NCBI RefSeq assembly: GCF_003334315.1
Contig: NZ_QOWR01000061.1
Strand: one strand, 5' to 3'
Length of the DNA stretch: 28,808 nucleotides
Source: Escherichia coli
GTDB lineage: Bacteria; Pseudomonadota; Gammaproteobacteria; Enterobacterales; Enterobacteriaceae
Shown one piece after another: positions 1 to 8,996 of the stretch. Each line of letters opens with the position of its first letter. The stretch's first letter is position 1. The notes under the pieces were generated by a model that was not told the origin of the DNA, searched no databases, and worked only from the letters and a program-made list of their open reading frames with translations. The translations under genes and the position numbers were made by a program.

Positions 1-357
1 GTCGGGGCTAAATCGCGCCAGCGCTGGCTGTTTTACGCGTATGACAGGCTCCGGAAGACGGTTGTTGCGCACGTATTCGGTGAACGCACTATGGCGACGC
101 TGGGGCGTCTTATGAGCCTGCTGTCACCCTTTGACGTGGTGATATGGATGACGGATGGCTGGCCGCTGTATGAATCCCGCCTGAAGGGAAAGCTGCACGT
201 AATCAGCAAGCGATATACGCAGCGAATTGAGCGGCATAACCTGAATCTGAGGCAGCACCTGGCACGGCTGGGACGGAAGTCGCTGTCGTTCTCAAAATCG
301 GTGGAGCTGCATGACAAAGTCATCGGGCATTATCTGAACATAAAACACTATCAATAA
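1..357 (+). CDS. insB: IS1 transposase InsB, C-terminal fragment (5' end outside window)
   Basis: ORF 91..357 plus open upstream frame from base 1; recognised InsB C-terminal sequence; stop TAA at 355..357. Confidence 0.85.
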
Positions 358-372
358 GTTGGAGTCATTACC
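1..372 (+). mobile_element. IS1-family insertion sequence, partial (3' ~370 bp including right terminal inverted repeat; window starts inside the element)
   Basis: Bases 1..357 translate in frame to the C-terminus of IS1 transposase InsB (...[37 protein letters not shown]...NIKHYQ*). Element ends with the IS1 terminal sequence AAGTTGGAGTCATTACC at 372. An inverted copy lies at 28437..28808 (ORF translations identical). Confidence 0.9.
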
Positions 373-859
373 GGCTGCCGGTATCGAACAAATAAAACAT
401 TTTCTGGCGACGGCATTTATTCGCCAACAGCCGGAGCGTTTTTTCTCTGCCCCCGGAAGTTTTCATTATTCGAATGTACGCGGTGAAAGCTGGCAACATA
501 TTACCCGGCAAATTTGTGCGCAATTAGTCGCACAACACCATATTACCGCCGATGAAGCACAACGCATCATCGCCCGCGAAGGCGAAGGTGAAAACCTGAT
601 TGTTAATCGCCTCGCCATCCCACATTGCTGGAGCGAACAGGAGCGACGTTTTCGTGGATTTTTTATTACCCTCGCCCAACCAGTTGAGGTGAATAACGAA
701 GTCATTAACCATGTCTTGATCGCCTGCGCCGCCGCCGATGCGCGTCATGAGCTAAAAATATTTAGCTATCTGGCAAGCATATTGTGTCAGCATCCGGCGG
801 AGATTATTGCCGGGTTAACAGGATATGAGGCATTTATGGAGTTACTTCACAAGGGGTGA
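373..859 (+). pseudogene. frvR: frvR 3' remnant: C-terminal PTS EIIA-type domain of the Frv operon regulator; upstream part replaced by IS1
   Basis: ORF 359..859 starts inside the IS1 end (TTG) and runs in frame into host DNA. Translation has an EIIA-type-2-like motif (NRLAIPHCW) and resembles the FrvR C-terminus. Position next to yiiG matches K-12 gene order. Confidence 0.6.
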
Positions 860-862
860 ACT

Positions 863-887
863 GTGTCGGATGCGCCGCATCCGACAC
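863..887. terminator. GC-rich perfect palindrome between convergent frvR' and yiiG; probable bidirectional terminator or REP-like hairpin
   Basis: GTGTCGGATGCG-C-CGCATCCGACAC, 12-bp arms, sits between the 3' ends of two convergent genes. Confidence 0.4.
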
Positions 888-908
888 TGCATTTATCATC
901 AAAAACGT

Positions 909-1964
909 TTAACGCAGGCTATTATAGTCATCAACCATTTCGTTGTACTCGCGTAATGCTCTCGGGAAAGAGTCTTCGACCATCCAGCTTGAGTTTGCGT
1001 CCTGAAGTTGCTCTTTATCCCAGTCAGAGTACGGGACTTTATCTCTGATGCGGCGAACGTATTTTTTAGCCTCGAGTTGATACTGGCCTGCCGAATTAAT
1101 AAACGAGAAATTCATGCCGCCTTTATCCGCTTCTTTGGCCTGCGCCACTAGCGTTTCCAGTTCAGACACTTTCTTCATTGCCGCTTCTGCATCAAACTTA
1201 TCTTGCGATATCAGGTTATTAATTTGTTTCGCTGAAATCATGACTGCCAGAGAGTAGTAGTGGAATGTTTTCCCTTCTCTTTCTTCAATATTTTTCAGTT
1301 CCGCAAGCTGACGCTTATCATTAATTTCCTGAATCGCCGCATGATAAGATTCGGCTACAGGTTCAAAGGCTTCCAGATTTTTTAAGAATGTCTGGTGCAG
1401 CGTTTTCCCTTTCGCAAACGCATCGTCTTTATAATTTTCCTGGGTGTAATATTTATCCATTTCGTTAATGGTATTACCCAACGCCACGGCAGCATCGATA
1501 TAACTCACCGCCACGCCATCAATTGGTTGCAGCGCAGGCGTTAACGCCACAGCACTTTTTACGCCTTTTTCACACTCAGCGAGGTTGGATTCACTAATGC
1601 CGTAGATGCCATAAACAGTACGCTCTTCACCGGTAGGCCCCTGTTTAAAATCTTTCAGCCAGTCAGCATAACGCGCCAGACTGCGCTGTACCGGGATCTG
1701 TAACTTGTTGTAGCACTTGATATAGACATCCATTTTTTCGTCGAAAACCGCTTGTTCATCGACCACCGGTTGCGCAGGTGTTTCAGGTTTAGCTTCTGCT
1801 TTTGCAACGGGAGCTTCAGTAGGTTTCGCTTCAGGAGCTGGTGCGGCAGGTTGACTATTGGCAGGCGGGAGCGTTTCTGTTTCGGCTTTTTTATCATCAC
1901 AACCCGTCAGACCGAGGGACATGATGGCGACTATAATAGCGGAAGATAATAAATTCCTTTTCAT
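909..1964 (-). CDS. yiiG: DUF3829-family lipoprotein YiiG
   Basis: 351-aa ORF. N-terminal signal peptide with lipobox L-T-G-C (MKRNLLSSAIIVAIMSLGLTGC), followed by a Pro/Ala/Lys-rich low-complexity linker and a helical domain. Synteny with fdhD. Confidence 0.8.
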   Translation of the reverse strand: MKRNLLSSAIIVAIMSLGLTGCDDKKAETETLPPANSQPAAPAPEAKPTEAPVAKAEAKPETPAQPVVDEQAVFDEKMDVYIKCYNKLQIPVQRSLARYADWLKDFKQGPTGEERTVYGIYGISESNLAECEKGVKSAVALTPALQPIDGVAVSYIDAAVALGNTINEMDKYYTQENYKDDAFAKGKTLHQTFLKNLEAFEPVAESYHAAIQEINDKRQLAELKNIEEREGKTFHYYSLAVMISAKQINNLISQDKFDAEAAMKKVSELETLVAQAKEADKGGMNFSFINSAGQYQLEAKKYVRRIRDKVPYSDWDKEQLQDANSSWMVEDSFPRALREYNEMVDDYNSLR

Positions 1965-2073
1965 TTAATTGCCTTATAAATATATAGATAAGAGAGTGAA
2001 CATAATAAATGAAAAAAGAAAACGCCACTACACGCATTTTGTTTATAAATAAAATAATAAAATTCACGAAATG

Positions 2074-2112
2074 AATAAGTCCTGCAATTTAATATATTTC
2101 GCAGGACTTATT
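2074..2112 (-). terminator. Rho-independent terminator downstream of fdhD
   Basis: Inverted repeat AATAAGTCCTGC / GCAGGACTTATT (12-bp stem, 15-nt loop) starting a few nt after the fdhD stop; on the minus strand it is followed by a U-rich tract (complement of 2041..2073). Confidence 0.55.
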
Positions 2113-2116
2113 TTAA

Positions 2117-2950
2117 TTAATTGCTCAAACGCTGCGGATGGGTATAAACCGTTGCCCGACCCGGTTTACAAAAACCTACCAGTGTCAGATTACAGCGCTC
2201 AGCCACTTCTACAGCAAGCGTGGTCGCGGCAGACACCGCAAACAAAATCTCTACGCCGCACATCGCCGACTTTTGCACCATTTCATAACTGGCACGACTG
2301 GAAACCAGTACCGCACCTTGCTGCCAGCTTTCCCCTTCTTGTGACCGGCGGCCTAACAGTTTGTCCAGCGCCACATGGCGACCCACGTCTTCATGCCCGC
2401 CGACCAGTTCGCCAGATGGCAACATCCAGGCAGCGGCGTGAGTACAACCAGTCAGTTGCCCCACTGGCTGAAAATCGTTGAGATGACGTAATGCATCATC
2501 CAGTTTGTTGAGATCAAACGTCTGGGTGAACGGTAGCGGCTGCACCGGTTTTCCGATGTCATTAAGTTGCTCCACGCCGCATACGCCACAGCCCGTACGT
2601 CCCGCCAGCGCCCGGCGGCGCTCCTTCAACCCCATAAAGCGGCGGCTGGAAAGCTCAATTTGTACTTCAAGACCATTACAGGAAGGAACGACATCCATGC
2701 CGAAGATATCGCGCGGACTTTCGATAATCCCCTCGGAAAGCGAAAAACCGAGCGCAAAGTACTCAAGGTCTTTGGGCGACGCCATCATCACCACATGCGA
2801 AATGCCGTTGTAGACCAGCGCAACGGGAACTTCTTCCGCGACCTCATCTAACCGTGGGTGTTGTAAATCATCACGCCGCCATAACTCAATTTGACGAACA
2901 CCTGTGATATTTGTCACATTTTCGATTTCTTTTCGCTGTGTTTTTTTCAC
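2117..2950 (-). CDS. fdhD: Formate dehydrogenase accessory sulfurtransferase FdhD
   Basis: 277-aa ORF recognised as FdhD-family; divergently placed upstream of fdoG as in E. coli. Confidence 0.85.
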
Positions 2951-3143
2951 TTTCTCTTAACCAGATAAGAACACACACACCAACATTATGGTATTCTGTT
3001 ACAAACCCTTCCTGGATGGAGGGAAATTGAGCCAATTCTGGACCTTTGCGGCCCCTTCCGCAAAGAAAAATAACTCCCACTCCCTGCACACGCAGCAAGC
3101 GAATGTAAATGGGACGTGACAATGTCGAAACAAGGAGCAATCC

Positions 3144-6100
3144 ATGCAGGTCAGCAGAAGGCAGTTCTTTAAGATCTGCGCTGGCGGTATGGCAGGCACC
3201 ACGGCAGCGGCACTGGGTTTTGCACCCAGCGTAGCACTCGCGGAAACCCGGCAGTATAAACTGCTGCGCACCCGCGAAACCCGTAATACCTGCACCTATT
3301 GTTCCGTAGGCTGTGGGCTGTTGATGTACAGCCTCGGTGACGGAGCAAAAAACGCCAAAGCATCTATCTTCCATATCGAAGGCGATCCGGATCACCCGGT
3401 CAACCGCGGTGCACTTTGTCCGAAAGGCGCTGGCCTGGTGGATTTCATCCACTCCGAAAGCCGTCTGAAGTTTCCGGAATACCGTGCGCCAGGTTCTGAT
3501 AAATGGCAGCAAATCAGTTGGGAAGAGGCGTTTGATCGCATCGCCAAACTGATGAAAGAAGACCGCGATGCTAACTACATTGCGCAAAACGCCGAAGGCG
3601 TGACTGTTAACCGCTGGCTCTCCACCGGGATGCTGTGTGCTTCCGCGTCGAGTAACGAAACCGGCTATTTAACGCAAAAATTCTCCCGCGCGCTGGGTAT
3701 GCTCGCGGTCGACAACCAGGCGCGTGTCTGACATGGACCAACGGTAGCAAGTCTTGCTCCAACATTTGGTCGCGGTGCGATGACCAACCACTGGGTCGAC
3801 ATCAAGAACGCCAACCTCGTCGTGGTGATGGGCGGTAACGCCGCTGAAGCTCACCCGGTCGGGTTCCGCTGGGCGATGGAAGCCAAAATTCACAACGGCG
3901 CGAAGCTGATTGTGATCGATCCTCGCTTTACGCGTACGGCGGCGGTAGCTGACTACTATGCCCCTATTCGTTCCGGTACTGACATTGCTTTCCTGTCAGG
4001 CGTATTGCTGTACCTGCTGAACAATGAAAAATTCAACCGCGAATACACCGAAGCCTATACCAACGCCAGCCTGATCGTGCGTGAGGATTACGGCTTTGAA
4101 GATGGCCTGTTCACCGGCTACGACGCGGAAAAACGCAAGTACGATAAATCCTCCTGGACTTATGAACTGGACGAAAACGGCTTCGCCAAACGCGATACCA
4201 CGCTGCAACATCCGCGCTGCGTGTGGAACTTGCTGAAACAGCACGTTTCCCGCTACACGCCAGATGTGGTTGAAAACATCTGTGGTACGCCAAAAGACGC
4301 GTTCCTGAAAGTCTGCGAATACATCGCAGAAACCAGTGCTCACGATAAAACTGCCTCGTTCCTGTATGCCCTCGGCTGGACGCAACACTCCGTTGGTGCG
4401 CAAAACATTCGTACGATGGCGATGATCCAGCTGCTGCTCGGCAATATGGGGATGGCAGGCGGCGGCGTTAACGCCCTGCGCGGTCACTCCAATATTCAGG
4501 GGCTGACGGACCTGGGGCTGCTGTCGCAGAGCCTGCCAGGTTACATGACGCTGCCAAGCGAGAAGCAGACCGATCTGCAAACCTACCTTACCGCCAACAC
4601 GCCAAAACCGCTGCTGGAAGGCCAGGTAAACTACTGGGGCAACTACCCGAAATTCTTCGTCTCTATGATGAAGGCCTTCTTTGGTGATAAAGCGACGGCG
4701 GAAAATAGCTGGGGCTTTGACTGGTTGCCGAAGTGGGATAAAGGCTACGACGTCCTGCAATACTTCGAGATGATGAAAGAGGGCAAGGTCAATGGCTATA
4801 TCTGCCAGGGCTTTAACCCTGTTGCCTCATTCCCGAACAAAAACAAAGTGATCGGTTGTCTGTCGAAACTGAAGTTCCTCGTCACCATCGACCCACTGAA
4901 CACTGAAACCTCTAACTTCTGGCAGAACCACGGTGAGCTGAACGAAGTTGACTCGTCGAAGATCCAGACCGAAGTGTTCCGTCTGCCATCGACCTGCTTC
5001 GCGGAAGAGAACGGTTCTATCGTTAACTCAGGTCGCTGGTTACAGTGGCACTGGAAAGGTGCGGACGCCCCGGGGATTGCGCTGACTGACGGCGAGATCC
5101 TCTCCGGTATCTTCCTGCGCTTGCGCAAGATGTATGCCGAACAGGGTGGCGCGAACCCGGACCAGGTGCTGAACATGACATGGAACTACGCCATTCCGCA
5201 TGAGCCATCTTCAGAAGAAGTGGCGATGGAGAGCAACGGTAAGGCGCTGGCCGATATTACCGATCCGGCAACCGGTGCGGTTATCGTCAAGAAAGGCCAA
5301 CAACTTAGTTCGTTCGCCCAATTGCGCGATGACGGTACAACCTCCTGTGGCTGCTGGATTTTCGCCGGTAGCTGGACGCCGGAAGGCAACCAGATGGCAC
5401 GCCGTGATAACGCCGATCCGTCTGGCCTCGGTAACACGCTGGGCTGGGCATGGGCATGGCCGCTTAACCGCCGCATTCTGTATAACCGCGCCTCCGCAGA
5501 TCCGCAGGGTAACCCGTGGGATCCGAAGCGTCAGTTGCTGAAATGGGACGGCACTAAGTGGACCGGCTGGGATATTCCGGACTACAGCGCAGCGCCTCCG
5601 GGTAGCGGCGTCGGGCCGTTTATCATGCAGCAGGAAGGCATGGGGCGTCTGTTTGCCCTCGATAAGATGGCGGAAGGTCCGTTCCCGGAACACTACGAGC
5701 CGTTTGAAACGCCGCTGGGAACTAACCCGCTGCATCCAAACGTTATCTCGAACCCGGCTGCACGTATCTTTAAAGACGACGCCGAAGCATTGGGTAAAGC
5801 CGATAAGTTCCCGTATGTCGGAACCACCTATCGTCTGACCGAGCACTTCCACTACTGGACCAAACACGCGCTGTTGAACGCGATTTTGCAGCCAGAGCAG
5901 TTTGTGGAAATCGGGGAGTCGCTGGCGAATAAACTTGGCATTGCCCAGGGCGATACCGTGAAAGTCTCCTCCAACCGTGGCTATATCAAAGCCAAAGCGG
6001 TGGTGACCAAACGTATTCGCACGCTGAAAGCGAACGGCAAAGATATCGATACCATCGGTATTCCGATTCACTGGGGCTATGAAGGCGTAGCTAAAAAAGG

Positions 6101-6194
6101 CTTTATTGCCAATACTTTAACGCCATTCGTTGGTGATGCGAACACGCAGACGCCGGAGTTTAAGTCCTTCCTTGTGAATGTGGAAAAGGTGTAA
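3144..6194 (+). CDS. fdoG: Formate dehydrogenase-O catalytic subunit (molybdopterin, selenocysteine-containing); in-frame UGA at 3729..3731 read as Sec
   Basis: Six-frame ORFs 3144..3731 and 3780..6194 are in the same frame, separated only by TGA. N-terminus has a Tat motif (SRRQFFK). Sequence around the UGA reads ...QARV-U-HGPTVASLAPTFGRGAMTNHW..., typical of Sec formate dehydrogenases. SD AGGAG lies 6 nt before the ATG. Confidence 0.9.
3732..3772 (+). promoter_or_regulatory. SECIS-like mRNA hairpin directing selenocysteine insertion at the fdoG UGA
   Basis: Immediately 3' of UGA: lower stem GACCA(3736..3740)/TGGTC(3767..3771) and upper stem AGCAA/TTGCT (3746..3758) with apical loop GUC, resembling the bacterial SECIS arrangement. 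Confidence 0.55.
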
Positions 6195-6206
6195 CGGAGA
6201 CGACAT

Positions 6207-7109
6207 ATGGCTTATCAATCTCAAGATATCATTCGTCGTTCCGCGACTAACGGTCTGACCCCCGCGCCTCAGGCGCGGGACTTCCAGGAAGAAGTGGCGA
6301 AACTCATCGACGTTACCACCTGTATCGGCTGTAAAGCCTGTCAGGTGGCGTGTTCAGAGTGGAACGACATTCGCGATACCGTCGGCAATAACATTGGGGT
6401 GTACGACAACCCCAATGATTTAAGCGCCAAATCGTGGACGGTAATGCGCTTCTCGGAAGTGGAGCAGAACGACAAACTGGAATGGCTGATCCGCAAAGAC
6501 GGCTGTATGCACTGTTCCGATCCAGGCTGCCTGAAAGCGTGCCCGGCGGAAGGTGCAATTATTCAGTATGCCAACGGTATCGTCGACTTCCAGTCCGAGC
6601 AGTGCATTGGCTGCGGTTATTGCATTGCGGGCTGTCCGTTCGACATTCCGCGCCTCAACCCGGAAGACAACCGCGTCTACAAATGTACGCTGTGCGTTGA
6701 CCGCGTGGTGGTTGGGCAAGAACCAGCCTGCGTGAAGACCTGCCCAACGGGCGCGATTCACTTCGGTACGAAAGAGTCGATGAAAACGCTGGCGAGCGAG
6801 CGCGTTGCTGAGCTGAAAACCCGCGGTTACGACAATGCGGGTCTGTACGATCCGGCAGGCGTCGGTGGTACACACGTCATGTACGTGCTGCACCATGCTG
6901 ACAAGCCAAATCTGTATCATGGCTTGCCGGAGAACCCGGAAATCAGCGAAACCGTGAAATTCTGGAAAGGCATCTGGAAACCGCTCGCGGCTGTTGGCTT
7001 TGCGGCTACCTTTGCGGCCAGTATCTTCCACTACGTGGGTGTCGGTCCGAACCGTGCGGATGAGGAAGAGAATAATCTGCACGAAGAGAAAGACGAGGAG
7101 CGCAAATGA
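6207..7109 (+). CDS. fdoH: Formate dehydrogenase-O iron-sulfur subunit
   Basis: 300-aa ORF with four ferredoxin-type Cys clusters ([58 protein letters not shown]) and a C-terminal hydrophobic anchor. Confidence 0.9.
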
Positions 7110-7741
7110 AACGACGTGACACCATCGTGCGCTACACCGCGCCGGAACGTATCAACCACTGGATCACCGCCTTCTGCTTCATCCTGGCGGCGGTGAGCGG
7201 GCTGGGCTTTTTGTTCCCGTCCTTCAACTGGTTGATGCAAATCATGGGCACACCGCAGCTGGCGCGAATTCTGCACCCGTTTGTCGGCGTGGTTATGTTT
7301 GCCTCGTTCATCATCATGTTTTTCCGTTACTGGCATCACAACCTAATCAATCGGGATGATATCTTTTGGGCGAAGAATATTCGTAAGATCGTCGTCAACG
7401 AGGAAGTAGGTGACACCGGGCGTTATAACTTCGGTCAGAAATGCGTTTTCTGGGCGGCGATTATTTTCCTGGTTCTGCTGCTGGTGAGCGGCGTGATTAT
7501 CTGGCGTCCTTATTTTGCGCCTGCTTTCTCAATCCCGGTGATCCGATTCGCGTTAATGCTGCATTCATTTGCCGCAGTGGCGTTAATTGTGGTTATCATG
7601 GTGCATATCTACGCCGCCCTTTGGGTGAAAGGCACGATTACCGCCATGGTGGAAGGATGGGTTACCAGCGCCTGGGCGAAGAAACATCACCCGCGCTGGT
7701 ACCGTGAGGTCCGCAAGACAACGGAAAAGAAAGCTGAATGA
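7106..7741 (+). CDS. fdoI: Formate dehydrogenase-O cytochrome b556 subunit
   Basis: 211-aa polytopic membrane protein with conserved His residues; 4-bp overlap with fdoH stop (translational coupling). Confidence 0.9.
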
Positions 7742-8667
7742 GTATTCGCATAATCCCGCAAGATGAGCTGGGTTCAAGCGAGAAACGTACGGCGGATATG
7801 ATTCCGCCGTTATTGTTCCCTCGGCTCAAGAATTTATACAACCGCCGCGCCGAGCGTCTGCGCGAGCTGGCAGAAAATAATCCTCTGGGTGATTACCTGC
7901 GCTTTGCTGCGCTTATCGCCCACGCCCAGGAAGTGGTGCTGTACGACCATCCGCTGGAGATGGATCTGACTGCGCGCATTAAAGAAGCCAGCGCACAAGG
8001 CAAGCCCCCGCTGGATATTCACGTTCTGCCGCGTGATAAGCACTGGCAAAAGCTGCTGATGGCGCTGATTGCTGAGCTGAAACCTGAAATGAGCGGCCCG
8101 GCGCTGGCAGTGATTGAGAATCTGGAGAAGGCATCGACTCAGGAGCTGGAAGATATGGCCAGCGCGCTGTTTGCCTCTGATTTCTCGTCCGTCAGCAGCG
8201 ATAAAGCGCCGTTTATCTGGGCTGCACTGTCGCTCTACTGGGCGCAGATGGCCAATCTGATCCCCGGCAAAGCCCGCGCTGAATACGGCGAGCAACGTCA
8301 ATATTGCCCGGTTTGTGGTTCTATGCCGGTGTCCAGCATGGTGCAAATTGGCACCACTCAGGGGCTACGTTACCTGCACTGCAACCTGTGTGAAACTGAA
8401 TGGCACGTAGTGCGCGTAAAATGCAGCAACTGCGAGCAGAGCGGCAAACTGCATTACTGGTCGCTGGATGACGAACAGGCCGCGATTAAAGCCGAAAGCT
8501 GCGATGACTGCGGCACTTACCTGAAAATTCTCTATCAGGAAAAAGATCCAAAAATCGAAGCCGTAGCAGATGACCTCGCCTCTCTGGTACTGGACGCACG
8601 AATGGAGCAAGAAGGCTATGCCCGCAGTTCCATCAACCCGTTCCTGTTTCCGGGTGAAGGAGAGTAA
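7738..8667 (+). CDS. fdhE: Formate dehydrogenase formation protein FdhE
   Basis: 309-aa ORF with four CxxC pairs ([27 protein letters not shown]); start overlaps fdoI stop. Confidence 0.9.
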
Positions 8668-8848
8668 TCTCTGACGTTTTCCGGGTGGCGCAGGTCGCCC
8701 GGATTACAGCTCATAGGGTGTGACGACACCATCTCTCGTATTCCGCGTTACCACCTCAAGCTATGCCGCCAGTGCCGGTTTGGCCTCAATTTACCCACCA
8801 CCACATCAATAAGGTTATGGGCATGAGACTGATGACAAGCGTAAGATT

Positions 8849-8948
8849 GCCTGATGCGCTGCGCTTATCAGGCCTACCAATAAACTGCAATACATTGAAT
8901 TTATACGACTTTGTAGGCCGGATAAGGCGTTCACGCCGCATCCGGCAT
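8849..8948. repeat. REP/BIME element (two REP palindromes in opposite orientation)
   Basis: GCCTGATGCGCTGCGCTTATCAGGCCTAC (8849..8877) and GTAGGCCGGATAAGGCGTTCACGCCGCATCCGGCAT (8913..8948) match the enterobacterial REP consensus. Confidence 0.6.
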
Positions 8949-8996
8949 GAACAACGCGCACGTTGTCAGCAATCTGATTGACATCATTTTTTCCCA

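Follow-up and report, generated by a model that had tools for sequence, protein, structure and literature searches.

In Escherichia coli three genes only are described as encoding selenopolypeptides: fdnG, fdoG and fdhF (PMC4009273). Here we study fdoG, the gene for the catalytic subunit of formate dehydrogenase-O (FDH-O), in a stretch of E. coli DNA of 28,808 nucleotides (contig NZ_QOWR01000061.1 of assembly GCF_003334315.1), which as a whole is called the window. The subject is an in-frame UGA of this gene and the RNA hairpin that follows it, which we interpret as a selenocysteine (Sec) codon and its selenocysteine insertion sequence (SECIS).

The best described relatives are the elements of fdnG and fdhF. 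For fdnG, the stem-loop has been found experimentally to be essential for the decoding of UGA (Berg, Baron & Stewart 1991, as cited in PMC13188914, ref. 46). The contacts of SelB are given in PMC8659212, in a statement that cites Liu et al. 1998, as U17, G23 and U24, with a spacer of 11 nt. Once the UGA is at the A site the lower part of the element is expected to unwind in the mRNA tunnel, with the upper part alone staying folded (PMC4513850). The efficiency of Sec insertion with fdhF constructs in vivo is about 30-40% (PMC4513850, PMC4605307, PMC8659212).

More generally, a bacterial SECIS (bSECIS) is described as lying directly 3' of an in-frame UGA within the coding region. An upper stem of 4-16 bp carries an apical loop of 3-9 nt, in which position 1 or 2 is a G with a G or U after it, and 16-37 nt separate this loop from the UGA (PMC13188914). 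In what follows, positions within the element are numbered with the U of UGA as +1, which is position 3729 of the window.

The in-frame UGA of fdoG

When open reading frames (ORFs) are called naively, fdoG appears as two of them, 3144-3731 and 3780-6194. Both are in the same frame, and the intervening 48 nt (3732-3779) are open. The 1016-codon translation of 3144-6194 is interrupted once only, by the stop at codon 196 (DNQARV*HGPTVASLAPTFGRGAMTNHW). This context fits a Sec-containing formate dehydrogenase: the motif at the UGA of the window is U196-H-G-P, and U-H-x-P is the motif of the FdhA selenoprotein (PMC13188914, Table 1). Further, chain A of 1KQF, the structure of formate dehydrogenase-N (FDH-N), matches the FdoG of the window at 1902 bits and places the non-standard residue X196 opposite the UGA, which thus occupies the site of the catalytic Sec of FDH-N. 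Other top matches in the structure search carry the name "selenocysteine-containing". In the profile and PDB searches U was replaced by C in the translation.

The frame is maintained on both sides of the codon. TIGR01553, the profile of the Sec-containing alpha subunit of the FdnG/FdoG type, matches the window FdoG at 1574.6 bits (cut-off 814.2) over residues 2-1015 of 1016 and profile positions 1-1009. Beyond the TGA, all 820 codons are intact and encode the same residues as in K-12. A TGA is found at the position of codon 196 in every E. coli copy examined, namely the window, loci L001 and L008, K-12 fdoG and K-12 fdnG, and in RefSeq one coding sequence spans the TGA of fdoG.

From these observations, together with the RNA evidence below, we consider the UGA at 3729-3731 to be the programmed selenocysteine codon of fdoG, with a probability of about 0.97. 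A first reading of the letters without database searches, here called the sequence-only reading, had stated that a TGA splits fdoG into two ORFs of the same frame and that the surrounding peptide is the active-site context of Sec formate dehydrogenases. Both statements agree with our results. It had also called this known biology, and rightly so: the UGA and the hairpin of fdoG are textbook material that is already annotated, and nothing in them is new. For annotation it means that fdoG needs to be called as one selenoprotein gene of 1016 codons, neither as two ORFs nor as a pseudogene.

The SECIS element

SECIS_3 (RF01989) is the only family above its gathering score in an Rfam scan of the whole 28.8-kb window, and it matches the RNA around the UGA, with the 53 nt that follow it, over the full length of the model (Table 1). 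In agreement with the description of bSECIS elements, the element (3732-3774) follows UGA codon 196 within the frame 3144-6194. The upper stem is 6-7 bp long and interrupted by a single bulge. The upper hairpin begins at +15 (3743), after a spacer of 11 nt (+4 to +14), and is formed by G15 and G16 paired with C31 and C32, and by A18-G-C-A21 paired with U27-G-C-U30. U17 (3745) is bulged out in both the minimum free energy (MFE) fold and the Rfam structure.

The apical loop can be read in two ways. As A22 G23 U24 C25 U26 (3750-3754) it is a loop AGUCU of 5 nt, 18 nt from the UGA (+4 to +21). Equally, A22 pairs with U26, as in the MFE fold and the Rfam consensus, which leaves a GUC triloop (3751-3753) at 19 nt. 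The closing pair A22-U26 has no support from covariation, because the pattern used in the search described below fixed its 3' side. In either case the G and U at the start of a bSECIS loop are provided by G+23 and U+24 (3751-3752), and the landmarks of the fdhF type are present: an upper hairpin of 17-18 nt, 11 nt after the UGA, with a bulged U17. The Rfam model, the bSECIS description and the fdhF landmarks thus all support that the RNA 3' of the UGA is a SECIS.

The GUC loop had been noticed in the sequence-only reading, and it is indeed predicted in the fold of 3729-3775, where it is closed by A-U. That the stem-loop starts right after the UGA is correct only for the lower helix of the Rfam consensus; the MFE stem begins at +8 and the upper hairpin at +15.

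Of the known relatives, K-12 fdoG (b3894) is the closest. It encodes an identical protein in the same synteny, and its SECIS agrees with the window at 58 of 59 nt, the difference being one synonymous substitution in the window, C3734T. The element of K-12 fdnG is of the same family RF01989 (84.3 bits with SECIS_3) and agrees with that of the window in upper hairpin, loop and spacing, again with 58 of 59 nt identical and with Sec at 196 in both proteins. However, fdnG is a paralogue with 77% amino acid and 74.9% nucleotide identity overall, located in a separate, nitrate-inducible operon, fdnGHI. Codons 198-217 are 100% identical between the two genes and form the most conserved 20-codon window of the gene, while the synonymous-codon identity elsewhere is 58%. 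From the identity with the studied fdnG element we infer that the fdoG element binds SelB and directs the insertion of Sec.

The fdhF element (RF01988, SECIS_2) is more distant. It shares with fdoG the 11-nt spacer, a 4-bp core stem, and G15G16, the bulged U17, G23 and U24 at the same positions. In contrast, it belongs to another Rfam family, and it has a loop GGUC (4 nt) in an element of 17 nt, compared with AGUCU (or A-U plus GUC) in an element of 18 nt in fdoG. Its stem sequence and lower stem are not those of fdoG either, and the gene that hosts it encodes the cytoplasmic FDH-H. The comparison with fdnG and fdhF, which the sequence-only reading had proposed as a check, therefore comes out in favour of a SECIS, with near identity to the former and the landmarks of the latter at identical positions.

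A separate observation concerns the surroundings of fdhF. Downstream of yjcO/fdhF in K-12 (locus L003, 25-432) there are four tandem Rfam matches to naRNA4, a REP-derived nucleoid-associated RNA; in the Rfam scan of the window there are none.

Conservation and covariation across species

To compare homologues we used one pattern scan at the peptide level over the genomes of 100,044 species, allowing TGA, TGC or TGT at the codon, which found at least 120 loci. The numbers given here refer to the matches listed: 122 readable ones, of which 4 are E. coli loci fetched beforehand, comprising 98 distinct 59-mers (UGA in 88, a Cys codon in 10).

The codon is TGA in 112 of the 122 matches and a Cys codon in 10; outside the four E. 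coli loci it is TGA in 108 of 118. Among the UGA sequences (88-89), 89.9% of the cells in the upper helix are paired, with compensatory double changes at four of the seven base pairs. Two pairs join wobble positions on both sides: +18/+30 is GC in 54 sequences, CG in 11, AU in 10 and UA in 4, and +21/+27 is CG in 49 and AU in 31. The covariation score of the upper helix is 0.247-0.276, compared with 0.04-0.12 for slid controls, and none of 500 shuffles reaches it.

Sequences with UGA differ from those with a Cys codon. Among the distinct 59-mers G23U24 is present in 83 of 88 UGA sequences and in 0 of 10 Cys sequences (Fisher p = 2e-10), and all 4 bp of the core stem are formed in 80 of 88 and 0 of 10, respectively (p = 3e-9). 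Of 10 sampled loci with UGA, 7 match SECIS_3, and of 10 loci with a Cys codon none does. All of these loci were chosen by one peptide-level pattern, so the model is not merely recognizing coding sequence. As judged from these alignments, the upper hairpin at 3743-3760 covaries across species and occurs only together with UGA, not with a Cys codon. It is the covariance-model match and this comparative evidence, not the folding energy, that set the RNA element apart from chance. The data are also a clean illustration of how an RNA element inside a coding sequence constrains synonymous sites, a principle that is established for bacterial SECIS elements.

At codon 203 (3750-3752) the constraint seems to reach the protein. 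In 83 of the 88 Sec-type sequences among the matches listed this codon is AGU (Ser) or GGU (Gly), which supplies G23U24, while in 9 of the 10 Cys-type homologues it is GCN (Ala; L024, L073, L082, L094, L098, L115, L119, L121, L128). The SECIS appears to dictate the amino acid at this position, with Ser or Gly in Sec forms and Ala in Cys forms.

Five loci of the Desulfovibrio FdhA type (L009, L045, L053, L060 and L080, with VPALAESFG or VAALGESFG) have a UGA but neither G23U24 nor the stem in the register of E. coli, and one of them, L009, scores too low to reach the threshold of SECIS_3. A SECIS in another register is probably at work in these loci, for instance one with a CUC/GAG stem and a UGGCA loop.

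Folding energy and alternative explanations

The fold of 3729-3775 has an MFE of -11.9 kcal/mol, with the GUC triloop closed by A-U on a 5-bp stem with the bulged U. Below the bulge, two G-C pairs are separated by an internal loop from a lower stem of 6 bp (3736-3741/3766-3771). Against dinucleotide shuffles the 47-mer has a z-score of -0.91, the 59-mer one of -0.50, a context of 121 nt one of +1.25 and the upper hairpin of 18 nt one of -2.06. Folding this segment had been proposed as a check. A hairpin is predicted, but its energy is no better than chance, and such a calculation would not settle the question. Since even the authentic fdhF SECIS is non-significant in the same test (z only -1.23), we rejected the thermodynamic test as a discriminator.

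In the register of the Rfam consensus the lower stem contributes only -3.4 kcal/mol. The MFE register is shifted by one relative to it. We set the Rfam register aside because of its two non-canonical pairs and its low stability; the MFE register fits E. coli better. Across homologues only about 74% of the cells are paired in either register. The register is ambiguous, neither of the two is well supported across species, and the lower stem has weak support. A weak lower stem fits the mechanism, in which this part of the element has to open inside the mRNA tunnel.

No observation contradicts a SECIS-directed Sec codon, but several points should be weighed against it. The folding energy of the fdoG hairpin is indistinguishable from that of shuffled sequence. 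The lower helix in the Rfam register has 2 of 9 pairs non-canonical (A8-C48 and A12-G44), and C3734T further weakens this consensus stem by changing C-G to U-G. The fixed-length pattern of our scan itself fixes +16, +17, +25 (as C or U) and +26, so the invariance of U17 in the cross-species set is uninformative. Gene conversion could account in part for the identity of fdoG and fdnG. Finally, the window contains no sel gene, and selABCD of the source genome are assumed from other E. coli.

One alternative is that protein constraint, or gene conversion between fdoG and fdnG, explains the conservation of the nucleotides, and that the read-through is independent of a SECIS, by near-cognate decoding of a leaky UGA-C. 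The peptide HGPTVASLAPTFGRGAMTN is highly conserved, conversion could produce paralogues that agree at 58 of 59 nt over the element, and SECIS-independent read-through of 5-8% has been reported for fdhF constructs (PMC4513850). However, the homologues with a Cys codon have the same peptide context, and not one of the ten has the core stem, G23U24 or a SECIS_3 match. Further, the pairs +18/+30 and +21/+27, which join wobble positions, covary through three or four Watson-Crick types in a manner that the protein cannot explain. The Cys-codon controls and the covariation at wobble positions led us to reject conservation by protein constraint or gene conversion alone, and we regard this explanation as highly improbable.

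The other alternative is that fdoG is a pseudogene: a nonsense mutation would have created the TGA, the product would end at 195 residues, and the frame 3' of it would be in decay. This would agree with the split in naive ORF calling and with the non-significant hairpin energy. We rejected it, together with the split-gene reading, as next to inconceivable, since the TGA is conserved in all E. coli copies examined and in 108 of 118 other readable matches listed, the K-12-identical downstream frame matches the family hidden Markov model (HMM) to its end, and the TGA is followed by a SECIS that is absent from Cys-codon homologues.

Proposed decoding and the sel genes

By analogy with the Sec system of E. 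coli and with experiments on fdhF and fdnG (PMC8659212, PMC4513850, PMC4605307), the programmed UGA of fdoG would be decoded as follows. SelA and SelD would serve to charge the product of selC, and the resulting Sec-tRNASec would form a complex with SelB and GTP. The C-terminal domain of SelB would bind the upper hairpin, contacting the bulged U+17 and the loop bases G+23 and U+24. The approaching ribosome would then melt the lower stem in its mRNA tunnel (about 11 nt), so that the hairpin with its bound SelB would stand at the entrance of the tunnel at the very moment when the UGA enters the A site. There the tethered complex would decode the UGA, with Sec inserted in preference to termination by RF2. 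On ribosomes that fail to insert Sec, RF2 would terminate, and without Sec-tRNASec a fragment of 195 residues would result.

With K-12 queries, selAB and selD were each found in 5426 of 5426 complete E. coli genomes, and selC in 5425 of 5426. Given these near-universal genes, the source strain is very likely selenoprotein-competent. The sequence-only reading had taken the UGA itself as a mark of this competence; the claim gains from the distribution of the sel genes, but the window by itself cannot show it.

A minority allele in the lower stem

In 8.6 kb of the window (365-8966) only two bases are substituted relative to MG1655. The first is C3734T. The exact 59-mer of the window is found in 70 of 5434 E. 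coli records (about 1.3%) and is thus a minority allele. Its predicted MFE is -15.8 kcal/mol, compared with -17.4 kcal/mol for the CAC form, that is 1.6 kcal/mol weaker. Unpairing of the lower stem has been reported to have an effect of about 25% (PMC8659212). As the lower stem contributes little, C3734T is expected to be near-neutral, and we find it very unlikely that it measurably alters the efficiency of Sec insertion at fdoG. If it did, FDH-O levels would be tuned by a naturally occurring "silent" polymorphism.

The second substitution is in fdhE. At 8513 (codon 259) the window has G and MG1655 has A, which gives Gly259 and Asp259 in FdhE, respectively, beside a Cys (..SCDDCGTYL..). Gly259 is common to strains 13C1065T and VTB97420v, both of the others examined, and MG1655 may be the odd one out.

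The fdoG locus

The DNA of the window is chromosomal: 5426 of 5426 complete E. coli genomes contain bases 3000-6300 at a coverage of at least 80%, and in several the identity is 100%. The gene order is an IS1/frvR remnant, yiiG, fdhD on the minus strand, then fdoG, fdoH, fdoI and fdhE on the plus strand, followed by yiiF and the yih sulfoquinovose cluster. The synteny of the divergent fdhD and fdoGHI-fdhE matches K-12 b3891-b3895. The coordinates are collected in Table 1.

Table 1. Features of the fdoG locus and of its SECIS element, in window coordinates.
Feature	Position	Strand	Evidence or remark
fdhD, accessory sulfurtransferase for formate dehydrogenase maturation, divergent from fdoG	2117..2950	-	TIGR00129, 340 bits
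fdoG, formate dehydrogenase-O catalytic (alpha) subunit	3144..6194	+	1016-codon frame, TIGR01553, single RefSeq coding sequence WP_010723259.1
SECIS_3 (RF01989), full match	3726..3784	+	80.6 bits vs gathering score 63, E = 8.1e-18, model 1-59/59
UGA, codon 196, probably read as selenocysteine (Mo-ligand residue)	3729..3731	+	aligns with X196 of 1kqf_A
C3734T, synonymous, His197 CAC>CAT vs K-12, lower stem +6	3734	+	MG1655 comparison
Lower stem (tentative)	3736..3771	+	MFE register 3736-3741/3766-3771; Rfam consensus register 3732-3741/3766-3774
Upper SECIS hairpin GGUAGCAAGUCUUGCUCC, presumed SelB-binding core	3743..3760	+	every pair canonical, z = -2.06
fdoH	6207-7109	+	TIGR01582, 478.7 bits
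fdoI, FDH-O cytochrome b556	7106-7741	+	NF007924, 453.3 bits
fdhE	7738-8667	+	NF002925, 604.5 bits

The N-terminus of fdoG has a twin-arginine motif, SRRQFFK. Its protein is identical to K-12 b3894, whereas the identity to K-12 FdnG is 77%. Downstream, the product of fdoI scores 453 bits with the FDH-O model NF007924 and 244 bits with NF007558, the model of the FDH-N gamma subunit. Because its product is identical to b3894, and because it is followed by fdoH and an FDH-O-specific cytochrome b556 subunit, the recoded gene is, by this sequence comparison, fdoG and not fdnG.

The PGAP label at 3144-6194 is nevertheless "fdnG: formate dehydrogenase-N subunit alpha" in every matching genome listed. 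This is a quirk of HMM-based naming, taken from the TIGR01553 model, and is misleading for the fdoG locus.

Other observations in the window

In the closest genome an internal stop is flagged in yihP. It is absent from the window, where ORF 21669-23087 is intact.

The left edge of the window (1-372) is the 3' 372 nt of an IS1, 99.7% identical to IS1A in NZ_CP178690.1. As the window includes this IS1, the genome search returned thousands of extra matches and matches to plasmids. The IS1 interrupts frvR, of which a C-terminal remnant is left as ORF 359-859, a misleading fragment for naive ORF calling. The sequence-only reading had described the UGA as the one place in the window where such calling fails; with respect to recoding this is right, as SECIS_3 is the sole Rfam match, but the frvR remnant cut by IS1 is a second such place. 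In NZ_CP178690.1 the IS1 is located about 166 bp further upstream within frvR.

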